Below are positions 36,948 to 62,764 of a DNA stretch of 64,000 bases, piece after piece. Position 1 is the stretch's first letter. Each line of letters begins with the position of its first letter. The notes below the pieces were generated by a model. That model worked only from the letters and a program-made list of their open reading frames with translations, had not been told where the DNA came from and did no database searches. Origin of the DNA: an uncultured Verrucomicrobiaceae bacterium (GTDB lineage: Bacteria; Pseudomonadota; Gammaproteobacteria; Pseudomonadales; CAMLJR01); the NCBI GenBank assembly GCA_964500675.1, contig CAZCNY010000007.1, positions 81,582 to 145,581 of the forward strand. Direction: 5' to 3'. The translations under genes and the position numbers were made by a program.

Positions 36948-37655
36948 ATGGATAACAAGTGTGTATTGATTGTCGATGACGAATCCGCGATTCGCGAGAT
37001 GATTCGCGTCGCGCTCGAAATGTCCGATTTCGACTGCATGGAAGCGGCCAATGCGCAGGAAGCGCACGGACGTATCATCGATCACAAGCCCGATCTGGTT
37101 CTGCTCGATTGGATGCTGCCCGGTGCGAGCGGCATCGAATTACTGCGTCGATTGAAGCGCGAAGAATTGACCAAGGACGTGCCCGTGATCATGCTGACGG
37201 CCAAGGGTGAAGAAGACAATAAAATCCAAGGTCTCGAAGTCGGCGCCGACGACTACATCACCAAACCGTTCGCGCCGCGCGAATTGATTGCGCGCATCAA
37301 AGCGGTGATGCGGCGCAGCGGCCAACTGGAAGACGAAGGCGCGATCGAGGTTGAAGGGCTCGTGCTCGATCCGGCCAGTCATCGCGTATTTATCCGGCAG
37401 AAACCGGTCGATATGGGACCCACAGAGTTCAAGCTGTTAAAATTTTTCATGACGCACCGCGAGCGCGCCTATTCGCGCGGCCAGTTGCTCGATCACGTGT
37501 GGGGCGGTAATGTCTACGTCGAGGAGCGCACCGTCGATGTGCATATCCGCCGTCTGCGCAAAGCGCTGCAGACCGATGAAGCCGATTATGGCGAGTTGAT
37601 TCAAACGGTGCGCGGTACCGGCTATCGATTCTCCACCACCGGTGCGTTTGTCTAA
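36948..37655 (+). CDS. phoB: phosphate regulon response regulator
   Basis: 235 aa OmpR-family protein. [19 protein letters not shown] and the C-terminal winged helix are collinear with PhoB. Followed by phoR. Confidence 0.92.
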
Positions 37656-37709
37656 CAGCAGCTGTCGTCCGGTGGCTGCGCCCGCCAGAGAGCTAATGCT
37701 GACCCGCTG

Positions 37710-39023
37710 ATGTTAACAAATAACTGGAAGTCCGAAGTTTACCGTTTGTTATTGTGGCTCGGCGGCGCCTTGTTGATCGGCTGGTTACTCGATCGGGTGC
37801 CGTGGACGGTCGCCATCGCGGCGCTCGCGTTTGCCGCGCGCTCGATCTACAACCTCCATCGCTTGCAGCATTGGTTGTCGCAGCGTTCCTCGGTTGAGCC
37901 GCCAGAAGCGAGCGGTATGTGGGGCGAGGTGATGGACAATCTCTACCGCATGCAGCGGAAAGATCGACGCGAGCGTGTGCGGCTGCGCGCGTTGATCGGC
38001 TATTTGCGCGAGTCGTTCGCCTCGTTGCCTTATGGGGCGGTCATGATCGACCCGGAAGGCAATATCGAATGGACGAATAGAGCGGCCGAAACGTTGTTGG
38101 GGTTGCGTTTTCCGGACGATACGGGTCAACAAATTTTAAATCTGATGCGCGGTCCGGAGTTCGTCGCCTATTTCGAGGCGGAGGATTACAGCAAACCGCT
38201 CGAAATGCCGTCGTCATTGCATAACGATGTGCAATTGCAAATTCACGTCACGTTTTTTGGCCGACGCAGCCGCTTATTGTTCGCGCGCGATATCACGCAA
38301 GCGACGCGGCTCGAACAGATGCGCAAGGATTTCGTCGCCAATGTTTCGCACGAGCTGCGCACGCCGCTAACCGTCATCAACGGTTATCTCGAAACGTTCG
38401 CCGACAGTGTCGGTGCCAATAATCCGCGCTGGGCGCGCGCGCTCGATCAAATGTTGATGCAATCGCGCCGCATGCAGACGCTGATCAACGATTTGCTACT
38501 GCTGTCGCGTCTCGAAACCTTGCCTGAAGTGAGCGGACATGAAGCATTCGCGCTGCGGCCGCTGCTCGAAATGATCCGCGAAGAAGCGCTGGCATCGGTC
38601 GCCGGTAAACGCGAAATCACGATCGAGTGCGATGACAGTCTCGCGCTGATCGGACAGCGCGACGAGTTGCGCTCGGCCTTTGCCAACATCGTGCTCAATG
38701 CCACGCGTTACACCGAAGTCGGCGGCAATATTGCGATCCGCTGGTTTGCCGATCGCGACAATGCGTACCTGCAAGTGCAGGACGATGGCGTCGGCATCGA
38801 GGCCGATCATATCCCGCGCCTGACCGAGCGCTTTTATCGCGTCGATAAGAGCCGCTCGATGGACACCGGCGGCACGGGGCTGGGGCTCGCCATCGTCAAG
38901 CATGTGCTGATTCGCCATCAAGCGCGGTTGCACGTGACCTCCAAGCCCGGTGAGGGCAGTTGTTTTTCGTGCGTGTTCCCGCTGACGCGAACCGCGCGCG
39001 AAGTAAAGTCCGCGCAACGCTAG
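37710..39023 (+). CDS. phoR: phosphate regulon sensor histidine kinase
   Basis: 437 aa with two N-terminal TM segments, a PAS-like region, FVANVSHELRTPLT H-box and a GTGLGLAIVKH G-box. Confidence 0.92.
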   Translation: MLTNNWKSEVYRLLLWLGGALLIGWLLDRVPWTVAIAALAFAARSIYNLHRLQHWLSQRSSVEPPEASGMWGEVMDNLYRMQRKDRRERVRLRALIGYLRESFASLPYGAVMIDPEGNIEWTNRAAETLLGLRFPDDTGQQILNLMRGPEFVAYFEAEDYSKPLEMPSSLHNDVQLQIHVTFFGRRSRLLFARDITQATRLEQMRKDFVANVSHELRTPLTVINGYLETFADSVGANNPRWARALDQMLMQSRRMQTLINDLLLLSRLETLPEVSGHEAFALRPLLEMIREEALASVAGKREITIECDDSLALIGQRDELRSAFANIVLNATRYTEVGGNIAIRWFADRDNAYLQVQDDGVGIEADHIPRLTERFYRVDKSRSMDTGGTGLGLAIVKHVLIRHQARLHVTSKPGEGSCFSCVFPLTRTAREVKSAQR

Positions 39024-39097
39024 CGGGAGCGTTGGGTTAAGAGGTCGTGAGGCCCAGCGACCGCAGGGCGGAAAAACAACGATTTTGTGTAGCAAAA

Positions 39098-39115
39098 ATG
39101 TCATAATTCGTTTCT
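39098..39115 (+). promoter_or_regulatory. weak Pho-box-like element upstream of pstB
   Basis: ATGTCAT-AATT-CGTTTCT. The first half is good and the second half is poor. Confidence 0.2.
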
Positions 39116-39305
39116 AAGATGTGTCGATGCAAGAGTTGACGATGCCCTCCCAAATTATTATTGGAAACGCCGCGAATCGATTGGCCGTCTCTATTTCTAT
39201 TCGACTCATCGTCCTTATTGCGCCGTAGAATTCCGGCGCCGTCGCACTGCGCAAATGCTTACGCGAAACCAGTCGCGCTCTGGAAATGTAAAGGAAAATT
39301 TCGTT

Positions 39306-40145
39306 ATGTCCGAAACGCCAACCGCCAAATCGCACGCGATCGATATTTCGCAACTCGGCCGCTCACCGGGACAGCATTCGCTGGAGAATGAAGAGACCTG
39401 CTTGTCGGTGCGCAACCTGAATTTGTTCTACGGTACCAAGCAGGCGCTTCACGACGTCAACATGGAGATTCCTCACCAGCGCGTCACCGCGTTCATAGGC
39501 CCGAGCGGCTGCGGTAAATCGACACTGCTGCGCTGCTTCAATCGCATGAACGATCTGGTCGATTCGTGCCGCATCGAAGGCGGCATTCTGCTCGACGATG
39601 CCGATATCTACGCGAAATCCGTTGATGTCGCTGCGCTGCGCCGCCGCGTCGGTATGGTGTTTCAAAAGCCGAATCCGTTTCCAAAAACGATTTACGAAAA
39701 CGTCGCTTACGGTTTGCGCATTCAAGGCATCAATAAGAAGCGCGTGCTCGATGAGGTTGTCGAGCGCTCGCTGCGTTCGGCTGCGTTGTGGGATGAAGTC
39801 AAAGATCGATTGCATGAAAACGCGCTCGGTATGTCGGGTGGTCAGCAGCAGCGCCTCGTTATCGCGCGCACCATCGCGGTCGAGCCTGAAGTGGTGTTGC
39901 TTGATGAACCGGCCTCCGCGCTCGATCCGATTTCGACATTGAAAATCGAAGAATTAATTTATGAATTGAAAGCCAAATACACCCTTGTGATCGTTACCCA
40001 CAACATGCAGCAAGCGGCGCGGGTTTCTGACTATACTGCCTTCATGTACATGGGCAAGTTGATCGAATTCGATAGCACCGATCGCCTGTTCACGAACCCC
40101 AAACAACGGCAGACCGAAGACTACATCACGGGGCGCTATGGTTGA
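39306..40145 (+). CDS. pstB: phosphate ABC transporter ATP-binding protein
   Basis: ORF 39255..40145 trimmed to ATG 39306 (AAGGAAA RBS). Has Walker [10 protein letters not shown], the LSGGQQQRL signature, and the PstB-typical C-terminus ...[10 protein letters not shown]. Confidence 0.93.
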
Positions 40146-40210
40146 CGGGCCAATAGGACCGATACCGGCGTCGCGTTGAGCGATTTAATTATTTTTGAGG
40201 TGCTTTGACC

Positions 40211-40933
40211 ATGGTCGACAAGGATACGCACTCGCATCATATCTCGCAGCAGTTCAACGCCGAGTTGGACGATATTAAAACACGCATGTTGGAAATGGGC
40301 GGGTTGGTCGAGCGCCAGGTTGCGGAAGCCGTGAATGCGGTGATGAATTCCGATGGCGGACTCGCCGAGCGCGTGCTCAAAGGCGATATGCGCATCAATG
40401 CAATGGAAGTTGCGATTGATGAAGAATGCGCACTGATTCTCGCGCGCCGTCATCCCGCCGCGAGCGATTTGCGTCTCGTGCTCGCGATCACGCGTGCCTT
40501 GCACGATCTCGAACGCATGGGCGACGAAGCGACGAAAATTGCCGAGCAGGCGATTCGTTTGATCGATCACGGCGAGATGCCGCGTTGCGTGCAGGAGATT
40601 CGTCATCTCGGCAACCACGTCTGCATGATGGTGCGCGAAGCGCTCGATTGCTTTGCGCGCCTCGACACCGAGCAGGCATTGCGTGTCGCGCAGGAGGATA
40701 AAGCCGTCGATCTCGAATACTCGACAGCGATGCGCACGCTCATGACGTATATGATGGAGGATCCGCGCAGTATTTCAGCGGTGCTCAATATCATGTGGAG
40801 TCTGCGCTCGCTCGAACGCATCGGCGACCACGCGCTCAATATTGCCGAGCACGTCGTTTACATGGTGAAAGGGCAGGATGTGCGCCATGTCGGCTTGAGC
40901 GAACTCGAAGCGCGCATTCACAGCGGCAACTGA
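40211..40933 (+). CDS. phoU: phosphate signalling complex protein PhoU
   Basis: ~240 aa, a two-fold repeat with E(R/K)xGD motifs (LERMGDEA, LERIGDHA). ATG 40211 is preferred over TTG 40205. Confidence 0.92.
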   Translation: MVDKDTHSHHISQQFNAELDDIKTRMLEMGGLVERQVAEAVNAVMNSDGGLAERVLKGDMRINAMEVAIDEECALILARRHPAASDLRLVLAITRALHDLERMGDEATKIAEQAIRLIDHGEMPRCVQEIRHLGNHVCMMVREALDCFARLDTEQALRVAQEDKAVDLEYSTAMRTLMTYMMEDPRSISAVLNIMWSLRSLERIGDHALNIAEHVVYMVKGQDVRHVGLSELEARIHSGN

Positions 40934-42799: not shown

Positions 42800-44044
42800 C
42801 TAATTCATGTTGGCAATCACAGCGGCGCCGAACTCCGAGCATGTCAGTGTCGCCGCATCGGGAATGAGCCGCGCGAGATCGTATGTCACCGTTTTTGCCG
42901 CGATCGCGCCATCCAAACCGCGTTGAATAAGATCGGCCGCTTCGCACCATTGCAGATAGCGCAATAGCATTTCCCCCGCGAGAATCAGCGCGCTCGGATT
43001 TACTTTGTCCTGGCCGGCATATTGCGGCGCGGTGCCGTGGATGGCTTCAAAGACCGCGACATCATCGCCGAGATTTGCCACCGCCGAACGGCCGACTGCA
43101 CCGGCCTGCGCCGTGAGCGCATCGGCCAAATAGTCTCCATTTAAATTCAGCGTGGCGATAACGCTGAATTGTTCCGGGCGTGTGAGCATCTGCTGAAACA
43201 TCGCATCGGCGACGATATCGTTGATGACGATTTGACGCTGCGTGCGCGGGTTGGTGAATGCGAGCCACGGCGTATTGTCGAGCGGTTGCGCACCGAATTC
43301 TTCCGCGGCTAATTCATAACCCCACTGCCGAAATGCATCCTCGGTGAATTTCATCGCATCGCCTTTATGCACGAGCGTCACGCTTGGCAGGTCGTGATCG
43401 ATGGCGTATTGAATGGCGCGTCGTATCAAGCGCTTTGAACCTTCGGCAGAAACATTTTTGATGCCGATGGCGCAATTTTCGTCGAAGCGAATTTTTTTAA
43501 CGCCCATCTCTTCGAGCAGGAATTGCAAAACCTTTTCCGCTTGCGGCGAACCCGCTTTCCACTCGATACCCGAGTAAACGTCCTCGGAATTTTCGCGAAA
43601 AATCACCATGTCGATTTTTTGCGGTTCGCGCACCGGTGCGGGCGAGCCGCGCAGCCAGCGCACGCGTCGCTGCGCGACGTAAAGATCGAACTCCTGGCGC
43701 AGTGCGATATTGAGCGAACGAAAACCTTCGCCGATCGGAGTCGTGAGCGGACCTTTGATGACGATGCCGTATTCCTTGATGGCGTCGAGCGTCGCGGTAG
43801 GGTACCACTCGCCCGCAAACATATCGGCGGCTTTTTCTCCGCTGTAAATTTCGAGCCACGCAATGTGGCGTTTACCGCCGTAAGCGCGCGCAACGGCGGC
43901 GTCGATCACGCTGCGCATCACCGGAGCGATGTCGACACCGATGCCGTCGCCCTCGATGAATGGCACGATCGGATGATCGGGCACATGCAGCGAGCGGTCG
44001 GCGTCGATCGCAATTTTTTCGCCGCGTTGAGTCGCTTGTGTCAT
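42800..44044 (-). CDS. icd: NADP-dependent isocitrate dehydrogenase (E. coli-type homodimeric)
   Basis: ORF 42800..44269 trimmed to [11 protein letters not shown]... at 44044 (GGGAG RBS). 414 aa. [21 protein letters not shown] retains the Ser that AceK phosphorylates in E. coli (S113 context IRSLN). Confidence 0.93.
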
Positions 44045-44087
44045 CTTATCGCTCCCAACATCGTATGTTGTTGACATCGGCGGCCAA

Positions 44088-46268
44088 TTAACTTTTTGCC
44101 AATTGCGCTTTGCGTTCGCGACGGCGCGCGTGCAATACCGGCTCGGTGTAACCGTTCGGTTGCTCGCGGCCTTTGAACACCAAATCGCACGCCGCTTGAA
44201 ACGCGATGCCGTCGAAATTCGGCGCCATTTTCGTGTACAGCGCGTCGCCGGCGTTTTGCTCGTCGACAATGACCGCCATGCGTTGCATGGTTTCTAGCAC
44301 TTGTTCGCGCGTGCAAATCCCGTGATGCAGCCAGTTCGCGATGTGCTGACTCGAAATGCGCAGCGTCGCGCGATCTTCCATCAACCCGATATTGTTGATG
44401 TCGGGTACTTTCGAGCAGCCGACGCCCTGATCGATCCAGCGTACGACATAACCGAGAATGCCCTGCGCGTTGTTGTCGAGCTCCTGTTGAATTTCCGCGG
44501 CCGACAATTTTTTATTGTCCGCCGGCACATGTTTATTCAGCAAAGGCAGTGTAAGAATGTCGTCGAGTGCGGCGCGCGAACGCGCGAGCAATTCTTCCTG
44601 GCGCTGCGCGACATTGACTTGATGGTAGTGCATGGCGTGCAGCGTTGCCGCGGTCGGCGAAGGCACCCACGCGGTATTCGCGCCGGCTTGCGGATGCCCG
44701 ATTTTTTGTTTGAGCATTTCCGCCATAAGGTCGGGCATCGCCCACATGCCTTTACCGATTTGCGCGCGCTGGCGCAGACCGCATTGCAGACCGATATCGA
44801 CGTTCCACTGCTCGTACGCCTGAATCCATGTTTCCTGTTTCATCGCATTTTTGCGCACCATCGCACCGGCTTCCATGCTGGTGTGAATTTCATCGCCAGT
44901 ACGATCGAGAAAGCCTGTGTTGATGAAGACGACGCGCTGTTTCGCCACGCGAATGCATTCTTTCAGGTTCACCGTGGTGCGGCGCTCTTCGTCCATGATG
45001 CCGACTTTGAGCGTATTGCGCGCGAGACCGAGGATGTTTTCGATCGCACTGAATAAGTCACAGGTAAATGCGACTTCTTTGGGTCCATGCATTTTCGGTT
45101 TGACGATGTAGATCGAACCTGTGCGCGAATTTTTTATACGACCGCCGCCTTTCAAATCGTGCATGGCGATCAGAGAGGTAATCGCGCCGTCGAGAATGCC
45201 TTCGGGCACTTCGTTGCCGGCGCTGTCGAGCACCGCGCTTGTCGTCATCAAATGGCCGACGTTGCGCACGAATAGCAAGCTGCGGCCCGGCAACGTGAGA
45301 TTGCCGCCATCGAGCGCGGTGAATGTGCGATCGGGGCTGAGCGTGCGCGTGAGCGTTTTGCCGTCTTTCACAAAACTTTCGCTGAGATCGCCTTGCATGA
45401 GGCCGAGCCAATTGGCGTAGGCGAGCGCTTTGTCCTCGCCATCGACCGCAGCGATCGAGTCTTCCAAATCCTGAATCGTGGTGAGCGCGGATTCGAGCAC
45501 GATGTCTTTGATGCCCGCTGCATCGGTGCTGCCGATCGAATGTGCGCGATCGATTTGGATTTCGATATGCAGACCGTTGTGACGCAACAGAATCGACGAT
45601 GGCGCATGCGCTTCGCCGTTGTAGCCGACCAGTGCATGACGTTGTTGCAGCGGCGCAGTCTTGCCGCTTTTCAGCGCGATCTGCAATTCACCGTCAATGA
45701 TGACGTATTGCGTTGCATCGCTGTGGCTGCCGTCTTTCAGCGGGACGCTGCGATCGAGAAATTCGCGTGCAAACGCGATCACGCGTGCGCCGCGTTTTGG
45801 ATCGTAGCCCTTCGCGCTTTCCGAAGGGTCGCGCGCAATCGCATCGGTGCCATAGAGCGCATCGTACAAACTGCCCCAGCGCGCATTCGCCGCGTTCAAT
45901 GCGTAACGCGCGTTCATCACGGGCACGACGAGCTGCGGGCCGGCGAGAATTGCGATTTCAGAATCGACATTCTGCGTTTCGATCTGAAAATCCGGGCCTT
46001 CGGGCAACAGGTAGCCGATGTCGCGGAGAAATTGCCGATAAGTAACGGGATCGAACGGGTTCGATCGATGCCAGTTATCGATCTGCGCTTGCAGCGCATC
46101 GCGTTCCGCGAGCAGCGCGCGATTGCGCGGCGCGAACTCGGCAAGCAGCGCGGCAAAACCGCGCCAGAATTGATCGGCAGCGATGCCAGTGCCGTGCGCG
46201 GCGCGTTGCACGAGCGCGTGCAGCGGCGCAGAAATTTTTAAACCTTCGACCGGGATGTAATTGCTCAT
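44088..46268 (-). CDS. glcB: malate synthase G
   Basis: 726 aa, with size and blocks (e.g. [37 protein letters not shown]) typical of GlcB. Confidence 0.95.
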
Positions 46269-46328
46269 AATCGTCGTCCTGCTTGAAAAAAAACGGAGTG
46301 AAAAATTGTCGTCTAAAAAATCGTCTAA

Positions 46329-48134
46329 TCAAAACCCGCTGTCATTGGCATGTTGCACAAAGCGCTGTGCCTTGCGGTAGGGGAACACATCGTGCACCAC
46401 GCCCGCATTGATCTGACGCTGCATATCGATCCAGAAGTCGGGGTCGTAGATTTCCGGGTGCAAACGATCGAGCGCTTGCCGCGCGCGCGGATTCCCCGCA
46501 AAGAAGCGCCGAAACTCTTCCGGGAAAATATCGTTGACGGCGACGCCGTATGTGGGTGTTCCCGCCAGTATATCGGCATCGTCGCGCGGCGGTGGAATGC
46601 GGCGAAAACGGCATTCGGTGAGCGGGCACAATTCGTCGTAGTCGTAGAACACGACGCGGCCGTGGCGCGTCACACCGAAATTCTTGAGCAGCATATCGCC
46701 TGGAAAAATATTGGCGGCGGCGAGTTGCTTGATGGCGTTGCCGTACTCGTCCATCACGCTGTCGATCTCGTCATCGACGGCGTGCTGCAAATACAAATTC
46801 AACGGCGTCATGCGGCGTTCGATATAGATGTGTTTGATGATCAGCGCCCGGCCGTGAATGACGATCTGCGACGCGCATTCGCGCTGTAATTCCGCCAGCA
46901 ACTCGGGCGAAAAGCGCGCGAGCGGAAACGCGAGATTGCGAAATTCGTGCATGTCGGCCATGCGGCCAGCGCGCTCGGAGCGCTTTACAAAATTGTATTT
47001 TTCCTTGACCTGTTCGCGCGTCGTTTCCTTGGGAGGCGCGAAGCGATCCTTGATGATTTTGTAAACGTAATCAAATGAGGGCAGGGTGAACACTTCCATC
47101 ACCATGCCTTTGATACCCGGTGCAATCACGTACTGATCGGTTGAATGCCGCGTGTGTGCGACGGCGGCGCGATAAAATTCGCTTTTAGCGTGCTTGACGA
47201 AACCGAGTGCGGTGTACAGCTCGAAAATTTCCTTGTTCGGCATCAGCCCTTTGAGAAAGCGCACGTATTGCGACGGCACCGGAATATCGACCATGAAGTA
47301 TGTGCGCGTGAAGCTGAACAAAATCGAGAGATCGTCGGCGCTGAATAATGCGGTGTCGACGAAGATGCCGCCCTGCTCGTTGTTGAGCAGCGCTAAAACA
47401 AATGGGCAGCTGCGATCGCCGCAGTAAATTTTTCCGATCAGGTAGCCGGCTTTGTTGCGATAAAAAATGGAATCGAGCACTTCGATTTGCGTGGCATGCG
47501 GGGCGAGCATGCCGCGCGCTTCGTCGCTGCGCTCCGCGGCCGCAATGATGCATTGAATATCGCGCTCGATATTCTCGAAACCGATGCTGAAATCGATGTC
47601 GCACAAAATTTCGCGAAGCAGCGCCGGCACGCTGTCTTTACGTTGCTCATCATCGTTGCTTTGCCCGTCGTCATTGCATTGCCCATCGCCGTTGTATTGC
47701 TCATCGTCGCTGCATTGATAGGTTTTCAGTACGCGCTCAAAACTTGCGGGCGTTGACAGGGGTTGTTCGAGGGCGAACGAATTGAGCCCCGATACTTTTT
47801 CGTGACCGAATACGAAGCAGTAACACGAGTTAAAAAACGTCTGCGCGATTTCGGCGTTGCTGTGTGTGAGCACGATGTCGGCATATTCGCGTTTTGCCGC
47901 GCGCCATAAATAGCGATCGTGCAAGTGTTCGCCGGCGATGACGCCGATCGCGGTGGCGGTGTGGTTGACCTTGCGGCGATAAATGGTAAGCCGATCGGCC
48001 ATTGCGGTATGAATCGCGTGCCATTCGGCGCGTTCGAAGCGCGCTTGCGCACCCAGCGTGATGTTCTGCCATTCGGCGAACATGCTGTCGAAACCGTTGA
48101 GGATGGCGCGCGCGAAGCGGCGGGCGATGGACAT
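46329..48134 (-). CDS. aceK: isocitrate dehydrogenase kinase/phosphatase
   Basis: ORF 46329..48170 trimmed to MSIARRFARAILNGFDSMFAEW... at 48134. 601 aa, collinear with AceK through the C-terminal kinase domain. Confidence 0.9.
   Translation of the reverse strand: MSIARRFARAILNGFDSMFAEWQNITLGAQARFERAEWHAIHTAMADRLTIYRRKVNHTATAIGVIAGEHLHDRYLWRAAKREYADIVLTHSNAEIAQTFFNSCYCFVFGHEKVSGLNSFALEQPLSTPASFERVLKTYQCSDDEQYNGDGQCNDDGQSNDDEQRKDSVPALLREILCDIDFSIGFENIERDIQCIIAAAERSDEARGMLAPHATQIEVLDSIFYRNKAGYLIGKIYCGDRSCPFVLALLNNEQGGIFVDTALFSADDLSILFSFTRTYFMVDIPVPSQYVRFLKGLMPNKEIFELYTALGFVKHAKSEFYRAAVAHTRHSTDQYVIAPGIKGMVMEVFTLPSFDYVYKIIKDRFAPPKETTREQVKEKYNFVKRSERAGRMADMHEFRNLAFPLARFSPELLAELQRECASQIVIHGRALIIKHIYIERRMTPLNLYLQHAVDDEIDSVMDEYGNAIKQLAAANIFPGDMLLKNFGVTRHGRVVFYDYDELCPLTECRFRRIPPPRDDADILAGTPTYGVAVNDIFPEEFRRFFAGNPRARQALDRLHPEIYDPDFWIDMQRQINAGVVHDVFPYRKAQRFVQHANDSGF
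47646..47717 (-). repeat. four imperfect 18-nt tandem repeats inside aceK
   Basis: Plus strand: CTCATCATCGTTGCTTTG / CCCGTCGTCATTGCATTG / CCCATCGCCGTTGTATTG / CTCATCGTCGCTGCATTG. In the gene frame this encodes QCSDDE-QYNGDG-QCNDDG-QSNDDE. Confidence 0.9.
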
Positions 48135-48236: not shown

Positions 48237-49187
48237 ATGAATCTTGCCCGCGTCGATCTCAATCTGCTCGTCTACCTTGATGTGCTGCTGCGCGAATGCA
48301 GCGTCACGCGTGCGGCCGAGCAGCTTAACATCACGCAGCCCGCGATGAGCAACGGTCTGCGCCGCTTGCGCGATCTGTTCGACGATCCGCTGCTGATTCG
48401 CACCAGCGAGGGCATGCGCCCGACCGCGCGCGCGCTCGAATTGCAGCCGCAATTGCGCGAGGTGCTGAGCAAGCTTGAAGTTGTCGTGCAGTCGAGCAAC
48501 TTTGAGCCGCGGCAGAGCGAGCAGTTGTTTCGCATCATGGCCAGCGATTACGCCGAGTCGACCTTGCTGCCGCATTTGCTCGACGCCCTTCGCGACAGCG
48601 CACCCGGTATCGCGATCGATATTCTGACGCCGTCCGATGTCACGTTTCTCGATCTCGAAAAAGGCAAGATCGATCTCGCGATCAACCGCTTCGATCATTT
48701 GCCCAAATCGTTGCATCATACGACGCTGTGGCGCGATACGTTTTCGTGCTTGCTCAGCGCCGGCAATCCGATACTCGATGATTTTACACTCGATGCGTAT
48801 TTGCAGGCAGCGCATATTTGGGTGAGCAAAACCGGCATGGGCGTGGGTACGGGCATGACACCGCGCGATACGCTGCGGCTCGGTTGGGTCGACGAGGCGC
48901 TCGCCGAACTTGGCAAGCAGCGGCGCATTCGCATTTTCACGCGCCATTACCAGGTTGCCGCGCTGCTCGCGCAACAACCCGATTTGATTGCGACGCTGCC
49001 GACACAAGCGGCGCTGCTGCAAAGCGATAACCCGCGTCTCGCAATTCGCCGCCCGCCGTTTCCGATCGTGCCGATTGAGTTGAAGATGGCATGGAGCGCA
49101 CTACTGCAACACAACAACGCGCATATCTGGTTGCGCCGGAAAATTCAGGATGTCGCGCGCGAGTTGCTCACGAAAAATAAATCCTGA
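48237..49187 (+). CDS. LysR-family transcriptional regulator
   Basis: ORF 48225 (TTG) trimmed to ATG 48237. MNLARVDLNLLVYLDVLLRECSVTRAAEQLNITQPAMSNGLRRLR is a canonical LysR HTH. Confidence 0.9.
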   Translation: MNLARVDLNLLVYLDVLLRECSVTRAAEQLNITQPAMSNGLRRLRDLFDDPLLIRTSEGMRPTARALELQPQLREVLSKLEVVVQSSNFEPRQSEQLFRIMASDYAESTLLPHLLDALRDSAPGIAIDILTPSDVTFLDLEKGKIDLAINRFDHLPKSLHHTTLWRDTFSCLLSAGNPILDDFTLDAYLQAAHIWVSKTGMGVGTGMTPRDTLRLGWVDEALAELGKQRRIRIFTRHYQVAALLAQQPDLIATLPTQAALLQSDNPRLAIRRPPFPIVPIELKMAWSALLQHNNAHIWLRRKIQDVARELLTKNKS

Positions 49188-49215: not shown

Positions 49216-50346
49216 TTACGCGGCCATCTCCTCTCGCTCTTCCAGATCGCGCTGTGCAACCGGTGCGATGAACTGGAATTGGTAACCCAGCGCCGTCAGC
49301 TCACGTTGCATCTGTTGCGCGTTTTGATTACCGGCAGGGCAGCTGTAAGCGAGCAATTGCTGCGGATATTCGCGATGAATTGCCGCGGCGAATTGTCGCG
49401 CTTGTTCGAGATCGAGTTGAGCCGTTTCGAGCCAGAGCACATCGGCATATGGCGCATATGCGAGGCCGCGCGCAATCGCTTGCTCGATACCGCCGCGCAC
49501 TGCGTAAAAGCCTTCCTCGGTGCGCTCGCCGGTCATGAACGATTGATCGCGCGGATCGCAATCGGAGCTCAACAGGTTCGTTGTGTTGGCCGTGGTGCGC
49601 GCGACGATTAATGTCGGCACATCCTCAACATCGGCCGCGAGGCGCGCCGCATCCAATTTCTGCGCGACTTCGCGTGTCGGCATCAACACGTTGTCCATGT
49701 GAGCACGGCCGATCTGGCCGCGATGTTTGGTCGAGGTGAGCTGATCGTCGAAATGCACGCCCGCAGCACCGGCGCGAATCATGTTTTTCATGAGCTCGAA
49801 TGCGTTGAGCGCACTGCCGCTGTGAGCTTCGGCATCCGCTACGATCGGCGCGAAATAATCGATGAAGTCAGCATCGCCGGCGCAAGCGCTGGCTTTCCAC
49901 TGTATTTGGTCGGCGCGCTCGAACGCATTATTGATACGGCGCACGAGCGAGGGCACTGAATTGATCGCGTAGAGCGATTGGTCGGGGCGAATCGTTTCCG
50001 CACTGCTCTGATCAGCGCTTGCATGCGAACCGGAAAGATAAATGGCCTGCGCGCCGGCTCTGACCTGCTGTACTGCCTGCTCTCCGGTCAGAGCGGTTTG
50101 CGCATGGATGCAAGCCTGGTCCGTCGCGAGCAATTCCCAGAGCTTTTCCGCGCCGAGTTTGGCGATGGTGTTGTCGCGTTTGATCGAACCGCGCAGCCGC
50201 ACCACGTCTGCGGCGGTATAGGTCCGAGCGACGCCGTGCCAACGCGGATTTTCGGCCCAATCGGCCTCGATGCGGGCAGTTTCAGCGCGGCGATCGTATT
50301 TTCCCAGAGTGTGTTGAGCGTGCTGAGTGCATTGCGTGGTATTCAT
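49216..50346 (-). CDS. isocitrate lyase homologue lacking the catalytic KKCGH signature and C-terminal lid (pseudoenzyme or diverged ICL/PEP-mutase superfamily member)
   Basis: ORF 49216..50394 trimmed to ATG 50346 (GGAGAA RBS). 376 aa, strongly collinear with AceA/Icl1 (PDQSLY..NSVP, RADQIQW, IVADAEA, NAFELMK, VHFDDQ, VART, SDCDP, GERT, YAPYAD). However, it reads LTSTKHRGQIGRAH where ICLs have L.S.KKCGH.GGK, SGSH for SGWQ, AYSCPAGNQ for AYNCSPSFNW and FIAPVA for FITLAG. It ends ~55 aa early. Confidence 0.8.
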   Translation of the reverse strand: MNTTQCTQHAQHTLGKYDRRAETARIEADWAENPRWHGVARTYTAADVVRLRGSIKRDNTIAKLGAEKLWELLATDQACIHAQTALTGEQAVQQVRAGAQAIYLSGSHASADQSSAETIRPDQSLYAINSVPSLVRRINNAFERADQIQWKASACAGDADFIDYFAPIVADAEAHSGSALNAFELMKNMIRAGAAGVHFDDQLTSTKHRGQIGRAHMDNVLMPTREVAQKLDAARLAADVEDVPTLIVARTTANTTNLLSSDCDPRDQSFMTGERTEEGFYAVRGGIEQAIARGLAYAPYADVLWLETAQLDLEQARQFAAAIHREYPQQLLAYSCPAGNQNAQQMQRELTALGYQFQFIAPVAQRDLEEREEMAA

Positions 50347-50484
50347 GGCACTTCTCCAACCGTATGTCCGGTGCAAGAGGCAGCGTGTGAGCATCTGCGA
50401 TGAGGCATATTAGGGGCGGGTTGATGCATTAGCCGAATTTATTATTTTTATCCCTTGTATTTATCGCATGAATAGTTGGGCGGG

Positions 50485-50934
50485 TCACCGTCGCTTCTGC
50501 CGCAGCGCGTGCATCATGATGAGCACGACCGCAACGTTGAGCGCCAGCGCGCCGATGCTGATCCCGTCGGTGCGGCGGACCAGCTCGGCGATTTCAAACG
50601 GGATGTACACCGCCGCGCTGATCGCGGCGAACATTTCTGCCCAGGTCGCCTCGTGGAACAACCCATAGGCCTCGATAAATCGAGCGAGGGAATATGCGGC
50701 AGCGCCGAGTGCCAGCGTCACGAGTTTCGGGTTGCCCAGATGCGTTGCCGCCGCAATGAAGATACTCGGATATTTTGCGGCCGGATTGAGATGGGCGTGT
50801 TCGATCAGACGTACCGCGAGTTCATGCACATCGCGGTGAAAGAGCAGCAACAATCCCGATGCCGCGGCGACTGCAAGGAACCCTTTGAACGCCTCGAACA
50901 ATGCCACGGCTTTGATGGTTTTATGTAGACGCAT
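50485..50934 (-). CDS. DUF2127-like inner-membrane protein
   Basis: 149 aa with 4 TM segments. The start LHKTIKAVALFEAFKGFLAVAAASGLL resembles DUF2127 family members as I recall them. Confidence 0.6.
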   Translation of the reverse strand: MRLHKTIKAVALFEAFKGFLAVAAASGLLLLFHRDVHELAVRLIEHAHLNPAAKYPSIFIAAATHLGNPKLVTLALGAAAYSLARFIEAYGLFHEATWAEMFAAISAAVYIPFEIAELVRRTDGISIGALALNVAVVLIMMHALRQKRR

Positions 50935-51182: not shown

Positions 51183-52289
51183 TTACTGACAGCTCGTCAG
51201 CGGATCTTTGCAGTAGGCGACATTTTCCCAGCTAAACACATCGCGTTTGCGCGTGTCGATCGTGAGTTTCAACCATTCCGCAGGCGCGTTGGTCGAACCC
51301 TGCACGGTAATGCGCGTGAGATTCGGCACCGCTTGCGTGTGGTGAATTTGTCCCGTCGCGCTGCTCGGATCGGCGAGCGGCTGATCTTCTTCATACACGT
51401 GCGAATCGCCGTTCAACAACAGCACGGGTTTGCCGAAATGCGCGCTGAGATCGGCGAGTTTCTGCACGAACGGCGTGTACGCGGAAAGCTCATCGCTCGC
51501 TAGCGCTTCAGGATCCCACATGTCGGCTTGCAGACCGATGACGACCGCTTTGGCGTGTTCGCGCTCGGCCATATCGAATGCTGCTTGCAGCCAGCGCATA
51601 TTGGCACCTTCGCGGTCCGCAACTTCCATCGCCTGCGCACCGGGGTTGGCGAAATTGCCCGTCCACGGCACCGTGTCGTCATTCGAACCCGGCACATTGA
51701 GCGTAACGAAAACAACGCGGCCCTGCCGCCACATCACATTTTCGACAAATTGCGCATCGTGCGGATAGGCGCTATCGAAATGTTGCGCCTGGCTGATCAC
51801 CGGCATTTCACTCATACCCAAGGTGCGGCCGGGTTTCGCGAAAAACAATTGACGCACGCTGGCGAGTTCGTTGAGCGGCGCACCCGCGGCTTTTTCTTTC
51901 GATTTGTGGCAATCGGTCCACTCGTTGTCGCCCGGCGTGTAAACCATCGGTGCATGGAATTGTTGGAATTGATAATAGATCGATTGATTCCAGCCCGGGT
52001 TGGCACTCGCAATCGTCGGCAGAATGCCGGCGCTTGTGCACGGCATGCTGCCCGAATGAATATCGCCGACATGCAGCACGAGATCGACGGCGCGATCCGC
52101 GTTTACCGAATCGATCAGCAGTGAGGCATTGTCGAGCAAGTTCTGGTTGTACGGCCAATCGCCGAATACGGCGAGTGTGATGGGGCGTGCATCTCGATCG
52201 CCGTTGTCCATGGGTTCGCCCGCGATGCTGCAAGCGGCATTGGTGAGACCGGCGGTAATAAGCGCCGCGCTCCAGAAGAATTTATGCAT
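51183..52289 (-). CDS. secreted (possibly lipoprotein) metallophosphoesterase
   Basis: ORF 51183..52589 trimmed to MHKFFWSAALITAGLTNAACS... at 52289. Has calcineurin-like motifs (FGDWPY, HVGDIHSG, TPGDNEW, VIGLQADMW, LLNGDSHVY). Confidence 0.8.
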   Translation of the reverse strand: MHKFFWSAALITAGLTNAACSIAGEPMDNGDRDARPITLAVFGDWPYNQNLLDNASLLIDSVNADRAVDLVLHVGDIHSGSMPCTSAGILPTIASANPGWNQSIYYQFQQFHAPMVYTPGDNEWTDCHKSKEKAAGAPLNELASVRQLFFAKPGRTLGMSEMPVISQAQHFDSAYPHDAQFVENVMWRQGRVVFVTLNVPGSNDDTVPWTGNFANPGAQAMEVADREGANMRWLQAAFDMAEREHAKAVVIGLQADMWDPEALASDELSAYTPFVQKLADLSAHFGKPVLLLNGDSHVYEEDQPLADPSSATGQIHHTQAVPNLTRITVQGSTNAPAEWLKLTIDTRKRDVFSWENVAYCKDPLTSCQ

Positions 52290-59184: not shown

Positions 59185-59198
59185 CAACCAGTTGGTTG
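59185..59198. promoter_or_regulatory. inverted repeat, candidate TetR operator
   Basis: CAACCA-GT-TGGTTG lies directly after the -10-like element. A second pair, AACCAACC (59140-59147) / GGTTGGTT (59163-59170), lies upstream. Confidence 0.4.
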
Positions 59199-59218
59199 GA
59201 TTATCGCTGAGGCTGCCC

Positions 59219-62200
59219 ATGACCACGACCACCAGGACTACTACTGCCACGACCACTAGCGCGAAGACTGCGACCGAGGATACCGATCCGCGCGTGAAGT
59301 TGGCGCAGCGCATGAAAATGTTCAGCGCCGAAGATGCGCAGTTCCGCGCCGCATTTCCACTCCAAGAGGTCAGCGAAGCGAAGCGGCAACCGGGATTGCG
59401 ACTCGCCCAGATCGTGCAAATCGTCATGGAAGGTTATGCCGAGCGACCGGCGCTCGGGCAGCGCGCACGCGAGCTCGTCACCGATCCCGCCAACGGGCGC
59501 AAAACGCTCAGGCTCTTGCCGAAATTCGAAACCATCAGTTATCGGGATTTGTGGGCGCGGTCGCGTGCGGTCGCCAGCGCATGGCATCGCGACCCCAAAA
59601 ATCCGCTGCGCGCGGGCGATTTCGTTTGCATTCTGGGTTTCACGACCCCGGACTACGCGGCGATTTTGTTGGCGAATATTTCGCTCGGCGCGGTCAATGT
59701 GCCGCTGCAAACGAGCGCCTCGGTGCGCAATCACGTCGATATCATGGCCGAAACCGAAGCGCGCATTTTGGCCGCGAGCATCGATTACCTCGATGCCGCG
59801 GTGAACGCCGTGCTTGCGAGCGCGGTACCGCAGCGCCTGGTGGTTTTTGATTACGATGCGCGCGACGACGATCAGCGCGAAAAATGGCAGAACGCACATA
59901 AGCGATTGGCGGATGCGAACAGCGCGATCGTTGTCGATACGCTCGATGCAAGCGCCGATCGCGGCATGGCGCTACCGTTAGAGCCGCTGTTTGTGCCGGC
60001 AGCCGACGAAGATCCGCTGGCGTGGTTGTTTTACACCTCCGGTTCTACGGGTACGCCGAAAGGGGCGATCTTCACCGAGAAACTCGCGATCACGACTTGG
60101 CTCAGCGATGTGCCGATGCCGGTGATCACGCTGAGTTTCATGCCGATGGCGCACTTGGTCGGCAACGGTTATCTGCTGCTCGCGCTGGCGAACGGAGGCA
60201 CGAGTTATTGTTCGCCGAGAGCCGATTTGTCGACATTGTTCGAGGATTTTTCGCTGGCTCGCCCCACGATGAGTTCGTTAGTGCCGCGCGTTTGCGAATT
60301 GTTTTATCACCACTATCTCAGTGAGGTCGAAAGGCTCGGCGCAAGCCTCGCCGCTGAAATCAAAAAAGAAATGCGAGAGAAGACGATGGGCGGCCGCTTG
60401 TTATCGGTCGGTTGTGGTTCGGCTTCGCTCGCGCCGGAAACTTATGCGTTCATGGAATCGATGCTCGATATGCACATGGCCATCGGTTATTCCTCCACGG
60501 AAATCGCAGGCGGCACCGTGCTCGTCGATTGGAAGGTGCAGCGTCCGCCCGTGATTGATTACAAACTCGACGATGTACCCGAATTAGGGTATTTCAAAAC
60601 CGACAAACCGTATCCGCGCGGCGAGCTGTTGGTGAAATCCGATCGTTTCATGGGCGGCTATTACAAGCAGCCCGGTCTCACGGCGGACAAGTTCGACGCC
60701 GATGGTTTTTATCGGACCGGCGACGTCATGGCCGAGCGCGGGCCAGACCATCTGACGTTTGTCGATCGGCGCAACAATGTCATCAAGCTCTCGCAAGGCG
60801 AATTCGTCGCGATCTCGCGGCTGGAGGCGTTGTATTCGCACAGCCCGGAGATTCGACAGATTTACATTTATGGCACGAGCGAGCGCGCGTTTCTGCTCGC
60901 CGTCATCGTGCCTTCCGAAGAACTCGTCGCCGGGCTCGGGCGCGATGGTGCGGGGCGCGACTCAGTGAAGCTCGCGCTGCGCCATTCGCTGAAATGGATC
61001 GCCGATCAAGAAAATCTCAATGGCTACGAAATTCCGCGCGATTTTTTGATCGAGACCGAGCCATTCAGTTTGAAGAACGGACTTCTCACCGAAGTCGGCA
61101 AGCATCAGCGTCCGAAACTGAAGGAGCGTTACGACGAGCAGTTGGAGCAACTGTACACTCACATTGCGCGGGAGCAGCTCGATGAATTGCGCGCGCTGCG
61201 CTCCGGCGGCGCCGATCGACCGACGCTGGAAACCGTGACGCGCGCATTGCAGGCGGTTCTCGGTGTCGCCGCGACGGATGTAAGCCCCGAGGTGAAATAC
61301 GGCGAATTGGGAGGAGACTCGCTGTCGGCGCTCGAATTTTCGAAATTGCTGGAAGATATTTTCGACATCGAAGTGCCCGTCGGCGTCATTATCAATCCCG
61401 CCGGCAACGTGCGAGGTATCGCGGACTACATCGAGGCCGAGCGCAATTCCAGTGCGAAGCGTCCGACGTTTGCGCGCGTGCACGGCAAGCACAGCACCGT
61501 GGTGTCCGCCGCCGAACTCACGCTCGATAAGTTCATCGATCAGCGGATTCTCTCTAACGCATTAACACTGCCGCGATCCGGTGAATCCGTTCGTACGGTC
61601 CTGTTGACCGGCGCCACGGGTTATCTCGGCCGCTTCCTCGCCCTGTCGTGGTTGGAGCAAATGGCTAAAACCGGCGGTCAGCTCATGCTTATTGTGCGAT
61701 CTAACGATTTATCTGAGGCGCGACGGCGCATCGAAGGCGCGCTCGCTACCGATCCCGAATTGACGAAACATTTTCAAGCGCTGGCCGCTGATCATCTCGA
61801 AGTGATAGCAGGCGATCTCGGCGCGCCAAATCTCGGCTTGGATGCAGCAACCTGGGACCGGCTCGCCGAAACGGTCGACGCGATCGTGCACTCGGGTGCG
61901 CACGTCAATCACGTGTTGCCTTACAACCAATTGTTCGCGGCAAATGTGGCCGGCACGGCGGAATTGATCCGGCTCGCGATCACGAGCCGGCGCAAACGCA
62001 TTCACTACATCTCGACGCTGGGCGTGAGCGCGTTGTCGACTCGTCTGGTCGATGAAGACAGCGATATTCGCGATGCCGTGCCCGTCTGCGAAATTAACGC
62101 TAGCTATGCTAACGGCTACGGCATCAGCAAATGGGCGAGCGAAGTTCTGCTGCGCGAAGCGTTCGATTTGTGCGAATTGCCGATCGATGTTTTCCGCCCC

Positions 62201-62764
62201 GGCATGATTCTCGCGCACAGCCGTTACCAGGGGCAGTTGAACGTGCCCGATATGTTCACACGGTTGCTGTTCAGTCTGGCTGTCACCGGCGTGGCACCGG
62301 CGAGTTTTTACGCACAGGATGTGTCGGCGGGGCGGCCGCGCGCGCGCTACGAAGGTTTTGCCGCCGATTTTCTCGCCGCTGCGATCGTCGCGATCGGCAG
62401 CCGGGATACGCAGGGGTTTCACACATACAATCTGTCGAGCCCGCACGAGGAGGGCGTCGGGCTCGATGATTTCGTCGATTGGCTCGTCGATGCCGGTTGC
62501 AACATCGAACGCGTCGCTAAGTACGACGAGTGGCTGACGCGATTCGAAACCGCGATGCAGGCGCTGCCTGAAGCGCAGAAGCAGCAATCATTGCTCGCGC
62601 TGCTCGGACCGTATCGAAATCCGCAGATGGCCGGTGCAAAATCGCCGTTGACGAGTGAGCGGTTCTGCGCAGCGGCGACAGCAGCCGGTTTCAATATTCC
62701 CCGCTTGTCGGCGGCGCTGATCACCAAGTACGTTGCCGACTTGCGGCATCTTGGCTTGTTGTAA
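59219..62764 (+). CDS. carboxylic acid reductase (adenylation - PCP - thioester reductase; FadD9/CAR type)
   Basis: ORF 59192 (TTG) trimmed to ATG 59219. Has A-domain motifs LFYTSGSTGTPKGA and YRTGDV, carrier motif LGGDSLSA, reductase Rossmann LLTGATGYLGRFL and YGISKWASE (YxxxK). Overall 1181 aa, like Nocardia/Mycobacterium CARs. Confidence 0.9.
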   Translation: MTTTTRTTTATTTSAKTATEDTDPRVKLAQRMKMFSAEDAQFRAAFPLQEVSEAKRQPGLRLAQIVQIVMEGYAERPALGQRARELVTDPANGRKTLRLLPKFETISYRDLWARSRAVASAWHRDPKNPLRAGDFVCILGFTTPDYAAILLANISLGAVNVPLQTSASVRNHVDIMAETEARILAASIDYLDAAVNAVLASAVPQRLVVFDYDARDDDQREKWQNAHKRLADANSAIVVDTLDASADRGMALPLEPLFVPAADEDPLAWLFYTSGSTGTPKGAIFTEKLAITTWLSDVPMPVITLSFMPMAHLVGNGYLLLALANGGTSYCSPRADLSTLFEDFSLARPTMSSLVPRVCELFYHHYLSEVERLGASLAAEIKKEMREKTMGGRLLSVGCGSASLAPETYAFMESMLDMHMAIGYSSTEIAGGTVLVDWKVQRPPVIDYKLDDVPELGYFKTDKPYPRGELLVKSDRFMGGYYKQPGLTADKFDADGFYRTGDVMAERGPDHLTFVDRRNNVIKLSQGEFVAISRLEALYSHSPEIRQIYIYGTSERAFLLAVIVPSEELVAGLGRDGAGRDSVKLALRHSLKWIADQENLNGYEIPRDFLIETEPFSLKNGLLTEVGKHQRPKLKERYDEQLEQLYTHIAREQLDELRALRSGGADRPTLETVTRALQAVLGVAATDVSPEVKYGELGGDSLSALEFSKLLEDIFDIEVPVGVIINPAGNVRGIADYIEAERNSSAKRPTFARVHGKHSTVVSAAELTLDKFIDQRILSNALTLPRSGESVRTVLLTGATGYLGRFLALSWLEQMAKTGGQLMLIVRSNDLSEARRRIEGALATDPELTKHFQALAADHLEVIAGDLGAPNLGLDAATWDRLAETVDAIVHSGAHVNHVLPYNQLFAANVAGTAELIRLAITSRRKRIHYISTLGVSALSTRLVDEDSDIRDAVPVCEINASYANGYGISKWASEVLLREAFDLCELPIDVFRPGMILAHSRYQGQLNVPDMFTRLLFSLAVTGVAPASFYAQDVSAGRPRARYEGFAADFLAAAIVAIGSRDTQGFHTYNLSSPHEEGVGLDDFVDWLVDAGCNIERVAKYDEWLTRFETAMQALPEAQKQQSLLALLGPYRNPQMAGAKSPLTSERFCAAATAAGFNIPRLSAALITKYVADLRHLGLL

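Follow-up and report, generated by a model that had tools for sequence, protein, structure and literature searches.

The C-terminus of isocitrate lyase (ICL) provides an inter-subunit helix swap and a lid that closes the active site, and in the ICL1-glyoxylate-nitropropionate structure the succinate moiety is bound by N313, S315, S317 and T347. In the Mycobacterium tuberculosis enzyme, Cys191 is the catalytic acid, the C191S and D108A enzymes are inactive, and R228 is named as a core catalytic residue (PMC7609661). The KKCGH motif surrounding the Cys is described as needed for ICL activity (PMC13102942, PMC12088919). Here, we describe an ICL-like gene, located within a 64,000-nt stretch of a bacterial contig (CAZCNY010000007.1, assembly GCA_964500675.1; hereafter the window), whose product keeps the ICL barrel and has lost this motif, several substrate-binding residues and the C-terminal region. 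It is very probable that the gene is a selected, non-canonical derivative of aceA, and only slightly less so that its product is not a canonical ICL. Our best explanation of the whole, to which we assign a probability of roughly 45%, is an aceA descendant that would no longer perform the canonical cleavage and may be kept as a ligand-binding or regulatory pseudoenzyme.

The window protein is 62–65% identical to gammaproteobacterial group I ICLs (E. coli AceA, 1IGW; M. tuberculosis ICL1, 1F8I; model NF011645) and shares with this group the TIM-barrel fold, the Mg2+ ligands, the PDQSLY, RADQIQW, IVADAEA and GLAYAPYAD motifs and the aceA promoter/operator. Unlike group I enzymes, it is without KKCGH and its Cys, the Trp of SGW, the N313/S315/S317/T347 site and the helix-swap/lid region, and its clade has R120, H175, D200, T252 and L306 as new conserved residues. 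That an ICL relic can bind a ligand without being catalytic has a precedent in M. tuberculosis H37Rv: Rv1916 (AceAb), a fragment of ICL2 without KKCGH, does not turn over isocitrate and binds acetyl-CoA (PMC12088919). Both proteins are ICL-derived and lack this motif; however, Rv1916 corresponds to the GNAT-like C-terminal domain of an ICL2 that a frameshift has split in one strain, whereas the window protein is a remodelled catalytic barrel under clade-wide purifying selection. PrpB has the superfamily and the Mg2+ site in common with the window protein but its loop is KRCGH and includes the catalytic Cys (on the PrpB model TIGR02317, the window protein reaches 54 vs. a cutoff of 354). Another superfamily member, PA4872, retains the C-terminal helix swap, a region that is deleted in the window protein. 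PA4872 is a homotetrameric, Mg2+-dependent oxaloacetate decarboxylase (PMC8100219), and together with Cys-less phosphoenolpyruvate (PEP) mutase/ICL members it demonstrates that this Mg2+-dependent barrel supports chemistry without the lyase Cys (PMC8100219); it has, however, no specific sequence relationship to the window protein, which is a recent ICL offshoot. Literature searches for a Cys-less ICL, an ICL pseudoenzyme or a clade of this kind returned nothing relevant.

Active site and C-terminus of the ICL-like protein

The gene and the elements that belong directly to it are as follows.

49216..50346, minus strand: ICL-like coding sequence, 376 aa (open reading frame (ORF) and translation, Pfam/NCBIfam ICL matches, clade alignment, and a ratio of nonsynonymous to synonymous substitution rates (dN/dS) of 0.08–0.21)
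50352..50357, minus strand: ribosome binding site (RBS) GGAGAA, 5 nt 5' of the ATG (from the sequence; invariant in 7 aligned loci)
49699..49737, minus strand: former catalytic loop T204–H216, TSTKHRGQIGRAH (translation; mapping to M. tuberculosis C191)
49219..49227, minus strand: C-terminal Met-Ala-Ala (clade consensus [M/L/I]-A-A-stop; Ala-Ala in 17/17 sequences)

The strong ICL homology proposed in the initial annotation was readily reproduced. The protein belongs to the ICL superfamily by its match to Pfam ICL PF00463 (197.5 bits, cutoff 26) and also scores 34.2 bits against a cutoff of 31.5 for PF13714. The solved ICLs 3i4e and 1igw match it at E ~1e-116, and its AlphaFold2 (AF2) model (predicted local distance difference test (pLDDT) 81.7, predicted template modelling score (pTM) 0.83) aligns with both structures in Foldseek at a template modelling score (TM) of 0.83. 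With the ICL equivalog model NF011645 (PRK15063), however, the window protein reaches 460 bits against a cutoff of 562, and clade members score 404–497 vs. 783–796 for canonical ICLs. It passes the cutoff of TIGR01346 (358 bits vs. 275.9; canonical ICLs 636–643), which is lenient, and it is for this reason that clade members carry the JGI label 'isocitrate lyase'. Scores stayed far below the cutoffs of the PrpB equivalogs (TIGR02317, 54 vs. 354.4; NF008455, 43 vs. 353) and of the PEP mutase/carboxyphosphoenolpyruvate (CPEP) mutase equivalog TIGR02319 (29.6 vs. 420). Formal alignment and scoring with hidden Markov models (HMMs), which had been proposed as a check, thus assign the protein an ICL origin rather than one in the PrpB, PEP mutase or CPEP mutase families.

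To compare active sites, residues were mapped onto the M. tuberculosis ICL1 numbering, for which the reference sequence used reproduces every literature-numbered residue. The loop sequence given originally was correct, with minus-strand nt 49699–49737 translating exactly to TSTKHRGQIGRAH. Its codon 49720–49722 encodes Arg209 in place of the catalytic Cys (M. tuberculosis C191), and the window reads K207-H-R209-G-Q where the signature is K-[KR]-C-G-H. The formal alignments returned each of the replacements that had been read by eye: KHRGQ for KKCGH, SGS for SGW, SCPAG with FNW deleted for NCSPSFNW, and FIAPVA for FITLAG. Compared with canonical ICLs, the window loop carries 4 extra residues, and insertions of 0–11 aa follow R209 across the clade, in which 15 of the 16 crown members have Arg at the Cys position. 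The AF2 model gives pLDDT <50 at loop residues 206–214. A KKCGH motif concealed by a frameshift or a reading error was ruled out, as tblastn with a canonical ICL gave a single in-frame high-scoring segment pair and the loop translated as first read. Residues at the remaining mapped positions were kept or changed as listed.

Kept (M. tuberculosis=window): Y89=Y103, S91=S105, G92=G106, D108=D122, D153=D171, E155=E173, H180=H198, K189=K207, R228=R250, E285=E307
Changed (M. tuberculosis to window): W93 to S107, Y106 to R120, G157 to H175, E182 to D200, K190 to H208, C191 to R209, H193 to Q211, D230 to T252, N313 to S335, S315 to P337, S317 to G339, T347 to A361

Retention of the Mg2+ ligands, also part of the initial annotation, holds for D108, D153 and E155, present in the window as D122, D171 and E173, and E182 has become Asp (D200), which is invariant across the clade. 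D171 or E173 is lost in 2/16 members, and the Mg2+ ligands are retained in the other 14. At the glyoxylate site, the window protein has S105, G106 and R250 but S107 in place of W93; across the clade the R250 position is Arg in 6/16 and His in 10/16, and the H198 position is His or Arg. In place of the succinate-binding set, the window has S335, P337, G339 and A361 at positions that vary in the clade, and FNW is deleted. Judged from these residues, the Mg2+ and glyoxylate half of the site appears to survive; the half that holds succinate is lost, as are proton donor and lid. The variation at R250, H198 and D171/E173, along with the loop indels, can be taken as signs of a loose catalytic geometry within the clade.

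A comparison of fixed residues between the 16 clade members and 47 canonical ICLs revealed positions that are invariant in canonical ICLs and hold a different, conserved residue in the clade: M to I119, Y to R120, G to H175, V to A179, E to D200, C to R209, V to M222, D to T252, A to T256, T to S260, C to L306 and T to A361. H175 takes the place of Gly in the D-x-[DE]-x-G-F-G motif common to the superfamily. Other canonical-invariant positions are variable in the clade (window numbering: W107, F176, G178, G210, H211, S335, P337, A338, G339). The pocket has gained positive charge through R120, H175 and R209 and the loss of Asp at 252, and it has also lost its cover. It had been suggested that substitutions concentrate at catalytic positions, and this proved marginal: 9/20 active-site positions vs. 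50/198 other canonical-invariant positions were changed (odds ratio 2.4, one-sided p = 0.056), with divergence spanning the whole protein.

Alignment to solved ICLs stops near residue 352 of 434–439, leaving out the helix-swap/lid region (~last 80 residues). After FIAP the protein runs for just 15 more residues, and the gap between its stop codon and that of the convergent LysR gene is 28 nt. With tblastn, only residues 2–361 of the canonical query match, in one frame. Because of this single-frame match and the 28-nt gap, we consider the C-terminal region physically absent rather than frameshifted, and a C-terminal remnant 3' of the stop was ruled out since just 28 nt remain before the LysR gene. 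The truncation noted at the outset is therefore real, but its size was put too low at ~55 residues, as the protein is 58–68 aa shorter than canonical ICLs of 434–444 aa. Given these losses, the window protein almost certainly cannot cleave isocitrate, as far as sequence comparison can tell.

A divergent clade under purifying selection

Homologues were searched in ~5.8 billion protein clusters. The identical protein and 15 further clusters (357–387 aa, 68–79% identical) make up a clade in which the same features are lost, followed by canonical ICLs of 436–455 aa with ≤65% identity to the window protein. A clade profile separates the two groups (639–708 bits for the 16 clusters vs. ≤589 for canonical ICLs), and among 290 fetched ICL homologues, fragments aside, K[KR]CGH was absent only from the clade and from one further protein, P0034. 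In a neighbour-joining tree the 16 clade members were monophyletic in 50/50 bootstraps with P0034 as their sister (50/50), and root-to-tip distance was 0.60 for the clade vs. 0.23 for canonical ICLs. All 17 sequences are intact ORFs. The members all come from metagenome-assembled genomes (MAGs) or metagenomes, none from an isolate; the one named record is a Spongiibacteraceae MAG, in which NCBI names the protein 'isocitrate lyase/phosphoenolpyruvate mutase family protein'. Independent assemblies yielded the identical protein on three contigs. A separate NCBI record, P0015 (590 aa, on a 5.4-kb contig), is a canonical-type ICL with a ~150-residue internal duplication in which the KKCGH region appears twice; an assembly artefact or a partial duplication in tandem could account for this.

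P0034 (388 aa), which sits in a locus of the same type, is already without the KKCGH loop, the SGW Trp, D230, T347 and its last ~50 residues, and has L306 and an 8-residue N-terminal deletion in common with the crown group. It retains, however, Y120, G175, E200 and SFNW. P0034 is thus a stepwise basal intermediate; since it has the losses but keeps ancestral residues, truncation and loss of catalysis came before the fixation of the new residues.

The ICL-like ORF starts at the ATG at 50344–50346 and stops at the TAA at 49216–49218. The 376-aa frame is open and its GGAGAA is kept in 7 loci, in agreement with the intact ORF and good RBS described originally. A longer ORF reaching 50394 is not supported, as the ATG and RBS align over seven related loci.

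Selection was estimated as pairwise dN/dS with the Nei-Gojobori method (NG86) over five loci. The ICL-like gene gave 0.08–0.21 (dS 0.66–2.6), compared with 0.03–0.06 for lysR, 0.03–0.08 for aceK, 0.04–0.08 for glcB and 0.06–0.11 for icd. All 30-codon windows with a defined estimate were below 0.35. Constraint was strongest at residues 121–150 (0.02), and the highest local values were found at the former catalytic loop (0.31–0.33), with 0.2–0.25 over the last 40 residues. This comparison with orthologues had been proposed as a check on plain decay; values are not near 1 and the orthologues are not frameshifted. The ICL-like protein is nevertheless far less constrained than a functional ICL. At a GlcB identity of 59–67%, canonical ICLs are 85–90% identical to each other, and clade members are 58–63% identical to canonical ICLs; within the clade, the ICL-like protein is 67–81% identical vs. 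84–92% for GlcB. The ICL-like protein thus evolves faster than its neighbours, and canonical ICLs evolve slower than theirs, which points to a relaxed catalytic geometry.

As a control, the same dN/dS script was applied to ICL relics recovered in a metagenome scan with an FDD-containing DNA motif, a scan that did not recover the clade. These relics gave 0.34–0.92. They lie on JGI soil metagenome contigs (L094–L113; GC content 74–77%; e.g., L112 5858–6910 and L113 2775–3707), span 317–368 aa over the homologous stretch and are without KKCGH. Most miss ~50 aa including PDQSLY..RADQI (with the PDQSLY Mg2+ ligand) through an internal deletion, and their C-terminus is cut short close to where the window clade ends; the gene immediately upstream of the relic in L112 encodes malate synthase G. 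They share with the window protein the absence of KKCGH, the presence of FDDQ and WLET and the truncation point, but are 40–45% identical to it, pseudogene-like, and part of a separate ICL lineage resembling M. tuberculosis ICL1. Judging from their sequences, they look like decaying pseudogenes whose frames would stay open because stop codons are rare at high GC.

[M/L/I]-Ala-Ala is the terminus of each of the 17 sequences, preceded by a linker that varies in length and sequence. The codons of the tail and the stop codons differ synonymously between loci, and the tail is kept in L006, where LysR is not adjacent (8 kb away); for both reasons the conservation acts at the protein level, and an explanation through an overlapping LysR terminator was ruled out. 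AF2 models the tail at pLDDT <50. ClpXP recognises ssrA chiefly through the terminal Ala-Ala carboxylate, and there are natural substrates whose ends are related (PMC7652416). The tail resembles such a ClpXP degron, and a degron function may reasonably be inferred from this resemblance.

Promoter, neighbouring genes and origin

Conservation is striking over the 130 nt upstream of the ICL-like gene, which contain a dyad, an AT-rich block, a -10-like TACTAT/TAATAT and the RBS. A simple sigma-70 consensus scan upstream of the gene called no full promoter, and the promoter elements below are predicted from conservation across loci.

50407..50412, minus strand: -10-like hexamer TAATAT (TACTAT in most related loci), predicted from a conserved column block in the alignment
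50428..50453, minus strand: AT-rich promoter block GGATAAAAATAATAAATTCGGCTAAT (alignments with ICL-like loci and canonical aceA promoters)
50459..50473, minus strand: putative LysR-type operator, T-N11-A dyad, ATTCATGCGATAAAT (one mismatch from ATTCA-N5-TGAAT; positionally orthologous)

Upstream of ICL-like and canonical aceA genes alike, the AT-rich block is the best-conserved non-coding sequence. Across 93 fetched loci, the perfect dyad has 11 copies, 7 upstream of ICL-like genes and 4 upstream of glcB/aceA in canonical loci; these fall in 5 related ICL-like loci and 3 canonical loci and nowhere else. Sites of the dyad and the AT-rich block ATAAAAACAATAAATTCGG were located at L003 9897–9911, L008 8907–8921, L014 8752–8766 and 9840–9854, L009 ~2010–2075 and window 50428–50473. 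The canonical aceA genes of a Spongiibacteraceae MAG (L009), Microbulbifer, Saccharospirillum and Pseudohongiella are preceded by this block and dyad as well, which indicates that the ICL-like gene descends from aceA and still carries its promoter/operator. The dyad is apparently the operator of an uncharacterised LysR regulator of the glyoxylate shunt, and binding of the regulator there would bring co-regulation with the shunt genes.

The genes adjoining the ICL-like gene are listed below.

48237..49187, plus strand: LysR-family regulator (Pfam HTH_1 and LysR_substrate), transcribed towards the ICL-like gene and away from aceK
46329..48134, minus strand: aceK, isocitrate dehydrogenase (IDH) kinase/phosphatase (Pfam AceK_regulatory and AceK_kinase; synteny), first gene of an aceK-glcB-icd operon
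44088..46268, minus strand: glcB, malate synthase G (Pfam MS_N, MSG_insertion, MS_TIM-barrel and MS_C)
42800..44044, minus strand: icd, isocitrate dehydrogenase of the Iso_dh family (Pfam Iso_dh; start set by orthologue comparison)

The arrangement of ICL-like gene, convergent LysR and aceK recurs on seven independent contigs, followed by glcB and icd where the contig extends: the window; L003 (3.54-Mb contig JASGHU010000001.1, GCA_047602265.1); L004 (ENA); L006 (GCA_964631955.1); and L007, L091 and L093 (JGI). Homologues with the same features were found in NCBI, ENA, JGI and Logan data with consistent synteny. L006 (1690–2694 and 11084–11308) is an exception in that its LysR (94% identical) lies ~8 kb upstream, with only a 74-aa ORF at the usual LysR place. 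The aceK, glcB and icd genes (42800–48134, minus strand) are co-oriented with gaps of 43–60 nt, a layout kept in five loci. E. coli differs in having aceBAK, with icd elsewhere. The window LysR is 91–97% identical across clade loci and 61–67% identical to the LysR beside aceA/glcB in Microbulbifer, Saccharospirillum and Pseudohongiella-type loci. These canonical-ICL relatives show the orders glcB-LysR-aceA (Microbulbifer, Saccharospirillum) and LysR-glcB-aceA-aceK (Pseudohongiella-type MAGs), and the truncation coincides with a local rearrangement that put LysR-aceK at the 3' end of the ICL-like gene.

Some further features of the region were recorded. The window AceK (601 aa) has an Asp/Asn/Gln-rich insertion, CSDDEQYNGDGQCNDDGQSNDDEQRKD (~47580–47660), in its regulatory domain, which is absent in the 577-aa orthologues of L003 and L006. 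Just past icd lies a phosphate-regulon cluster (36948–40933; PhoB-like regulator, PhoR, PstB-like ABC ATPase, PhoU), and as PhoU/Pst genes also flank the locus in L003, L004, L006 and L007, synteny reaches past the shunt genes. On the other side, a 368-aa ORF (51183–52289, minus strand) has no Pfam match at E 1e-5 or better and is called as a gene in Logan contigs; it carries GDIHSG and GDNEW motifs reminiscent of metallophosphoesterases and adjoins a DUF2127 membrane protein (50485–50934). At 59192–62764 (plus strand), a 1190-aa protein combines AMP-binding, PP-binding and NAD_binding_4 domains, an architecture of carboxylic-acid reductases or of terminal-reductase proteins resembling nonribosomal peptide synthetases.

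A second, canonical ICL was also looked for: with a canonical enzyme as tblastn query, no other ICL homologue came up within the 64-kb window. None was seen on clade contigs among the close homologues and cluster members listed, which is weak negative evidence only. The nearest canonical ICLs (P0025, P0022, P0018) come from other samples. Since canonical ICLs exist in other Spongiibacteraceae MAGs (without LysR, aceK or glcB nearby, as in L009), coexistence of a canonical and an ICL-like gene is plausible.

Possible function and implications

We read the locus as a glyoxylate-shunt aceA that has been converted into a protein unable to carry out the canonical ICL reaction, and that is selectively maintained. 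The protein would be co-induced with the shunt genes. Its open, more cationic pocket (R120, H175, R209, T252) may bind Mg2+ and a small 2-oxo or 2-hydroxy acid, e.g., glyoxylate, and it could act by ligand binding or in a regulatory manner at the isocitrate branch point without isocitrate cleavage. The invariant and probably flexible Ala-Ala tail would make it a likely ClpXP substrate, so that its level could be set by proteolysis. Having lost the helix swap, the protein is predicted not to assemble as an ICL-type tetramer. The preference of the initial annotation for a pseudoenzyme or a new activity over plain decay is supported, with HMM scoring placing the protein as ICL-derived. Between those two, a pseudoenzyme is favoured because the R228-equivalent Arg and two metal ligands vary among members, the loop tolerates indels and the evolutionary rate is markedly raised. 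The specific assignment of a non-catalytic ligand-binding or regulatory role is nonetheless tentative, and we place it somewhat short of even odds. A still more detailed version, in which the dead ICL barrel would regulate the branch point of the tricarboxylic acid (TCA) and glyoxylate routes by sensing glyoxylate or isocitrate via the Mg2+ half-site and modulating AceK, IDH or malate synthase (or by buffering glyoxylate), with abundance set by ClpXP via Ala-Ala, appears rather improbable to us.

Several points weigh against the pseudoenzyme interpretation. Ligand binding is predicted from the remaining residues. The six newly fixed residues at canonical-invariant sites fit a new enzyme at least as well. 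The ClpXP degron is proposed from a sequence pattern, and because the Ala-Ala terminus corresponds by homology to a Met-Ser/Thr-Ala that is internal in canonical ICLs, the origin of the tail is partly historical. The window dyad has a mismatch and by itself is not significant (3 matches vs. 3.1 expected). Coexistence with a canonical ICL would bear on any regulatory model.

A new enzymatic activity, in which a remodelled pocket (R120, H175, D200, R209, T252, L306 and the Mg2+ ligands) would catalyse a Cys-independent reaction on a Mg2+-chelating oxo-acid, is the main rival, and in our view somewhat less likely than the pseudoenzyme. Candidates would include oxaloacetate decarboxylation or hydrolysis, or another C–C lyase reaction, whose product would feed or relieve the malate synthase/IDH node. 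This would account for the new residues fixed at canonical-invariant sites, the Mg2+ ligands in 14/16 members, the purifying selection along the whole barrel and the aceA-type promoter co-regulation with shunt genes, and the superfamily does include the Mg2+-dependent oxaloacetate decarboxylase PA4872 (PMC8100219). It fits poorly, however, with His at the R228 equivalent in 10/16 members, His or Arg at H198, two members without D171 or E173, a loop beside R209 that has indels of 0–11 aa and the highest dN/dS, the missing shielding lid, and HMM scores that stay under the cutoffs for PrpB, PEP mutase and CPEP mutase. That the protein is still an ICL, using Arg209 or a metal-bound water as alternative proton donor and supplying glyoxylate to the adjacent malate synthase, is very improbable: C191S alone is inactive (PMC7609661), the four succinate-binding residues, W93 and the lid are all lost or variable, NF011645 gives 460 vs. 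a cutoff of 562, and the protein evolves faster than its neighbours, unlike canonical ICLs. These observations stand against its occupation of aceA's place and promoter in a shunt locus whose aceK, glcB and icd look functional, the lack of a second ICL in the 64-kb window or on clade contigs among the listed close homologues, and a score above the lenient TIGR01346 cutoff.

Plain decay, with the gene a truncated aceA remnant caught before disruption or deletion, is less credible again. Loss of catalytic residues and C-terminus, evolution faster than that of neighbours and canonical ICLs, and a truncation that coincides with the rearrangement bringing LysR-aceK to the 3' end would all be expected of a pseudogene, but 17/17 ORFs are intact at dS up to 2.6 with dN/dS of 0.08–0.21, and RBS, promoter and operator are conserved, as are clade-specific residues and the C-terminal tripeptide, the latter with synonymous codon variation. 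True ICL relics, in contrast, give 0.34–0.92 and have the 50-aa internal deletion. With no disrupted frame in 17 sequences, and with 16 clusters that share the same losses, conserved synteny and a conserved promoter, the original impression that this looks less like random decay is well founded. An assembly or sequencing artefact or a chimera within a MAG, which the provenance of all members from MAGs or metagenomes might suggest, is practically negligible considering the identical protein on three contigs from independent assemblies and the syntenic homologues with the same features in NCBI, ENA, JGI and Logan data.

The carriers of the gene are a small group of uncultured bacteria of marine type. 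For the lineage itself, the ICL-like protein is easily mis-annotated, and an uncultured Spongiibacteraceae-related lineage would then be credited with a complete glyoxylate shunt in genome-based reconstructions. If there is no canonical ICL in these genomes, the well-conserved aceK, glcB and icd would need explanation. If the pseudoenzyme did act as a regulator of the branch point, it would add control at the level of the protein, of a kind that has not been described for the shunt. To our knowledge, pseudoenzymes of bacterial central metabolism are seldom documented, and this locus records the staged conversion of a core metabolic enzyme, with the ancestral promoter kept throughout.

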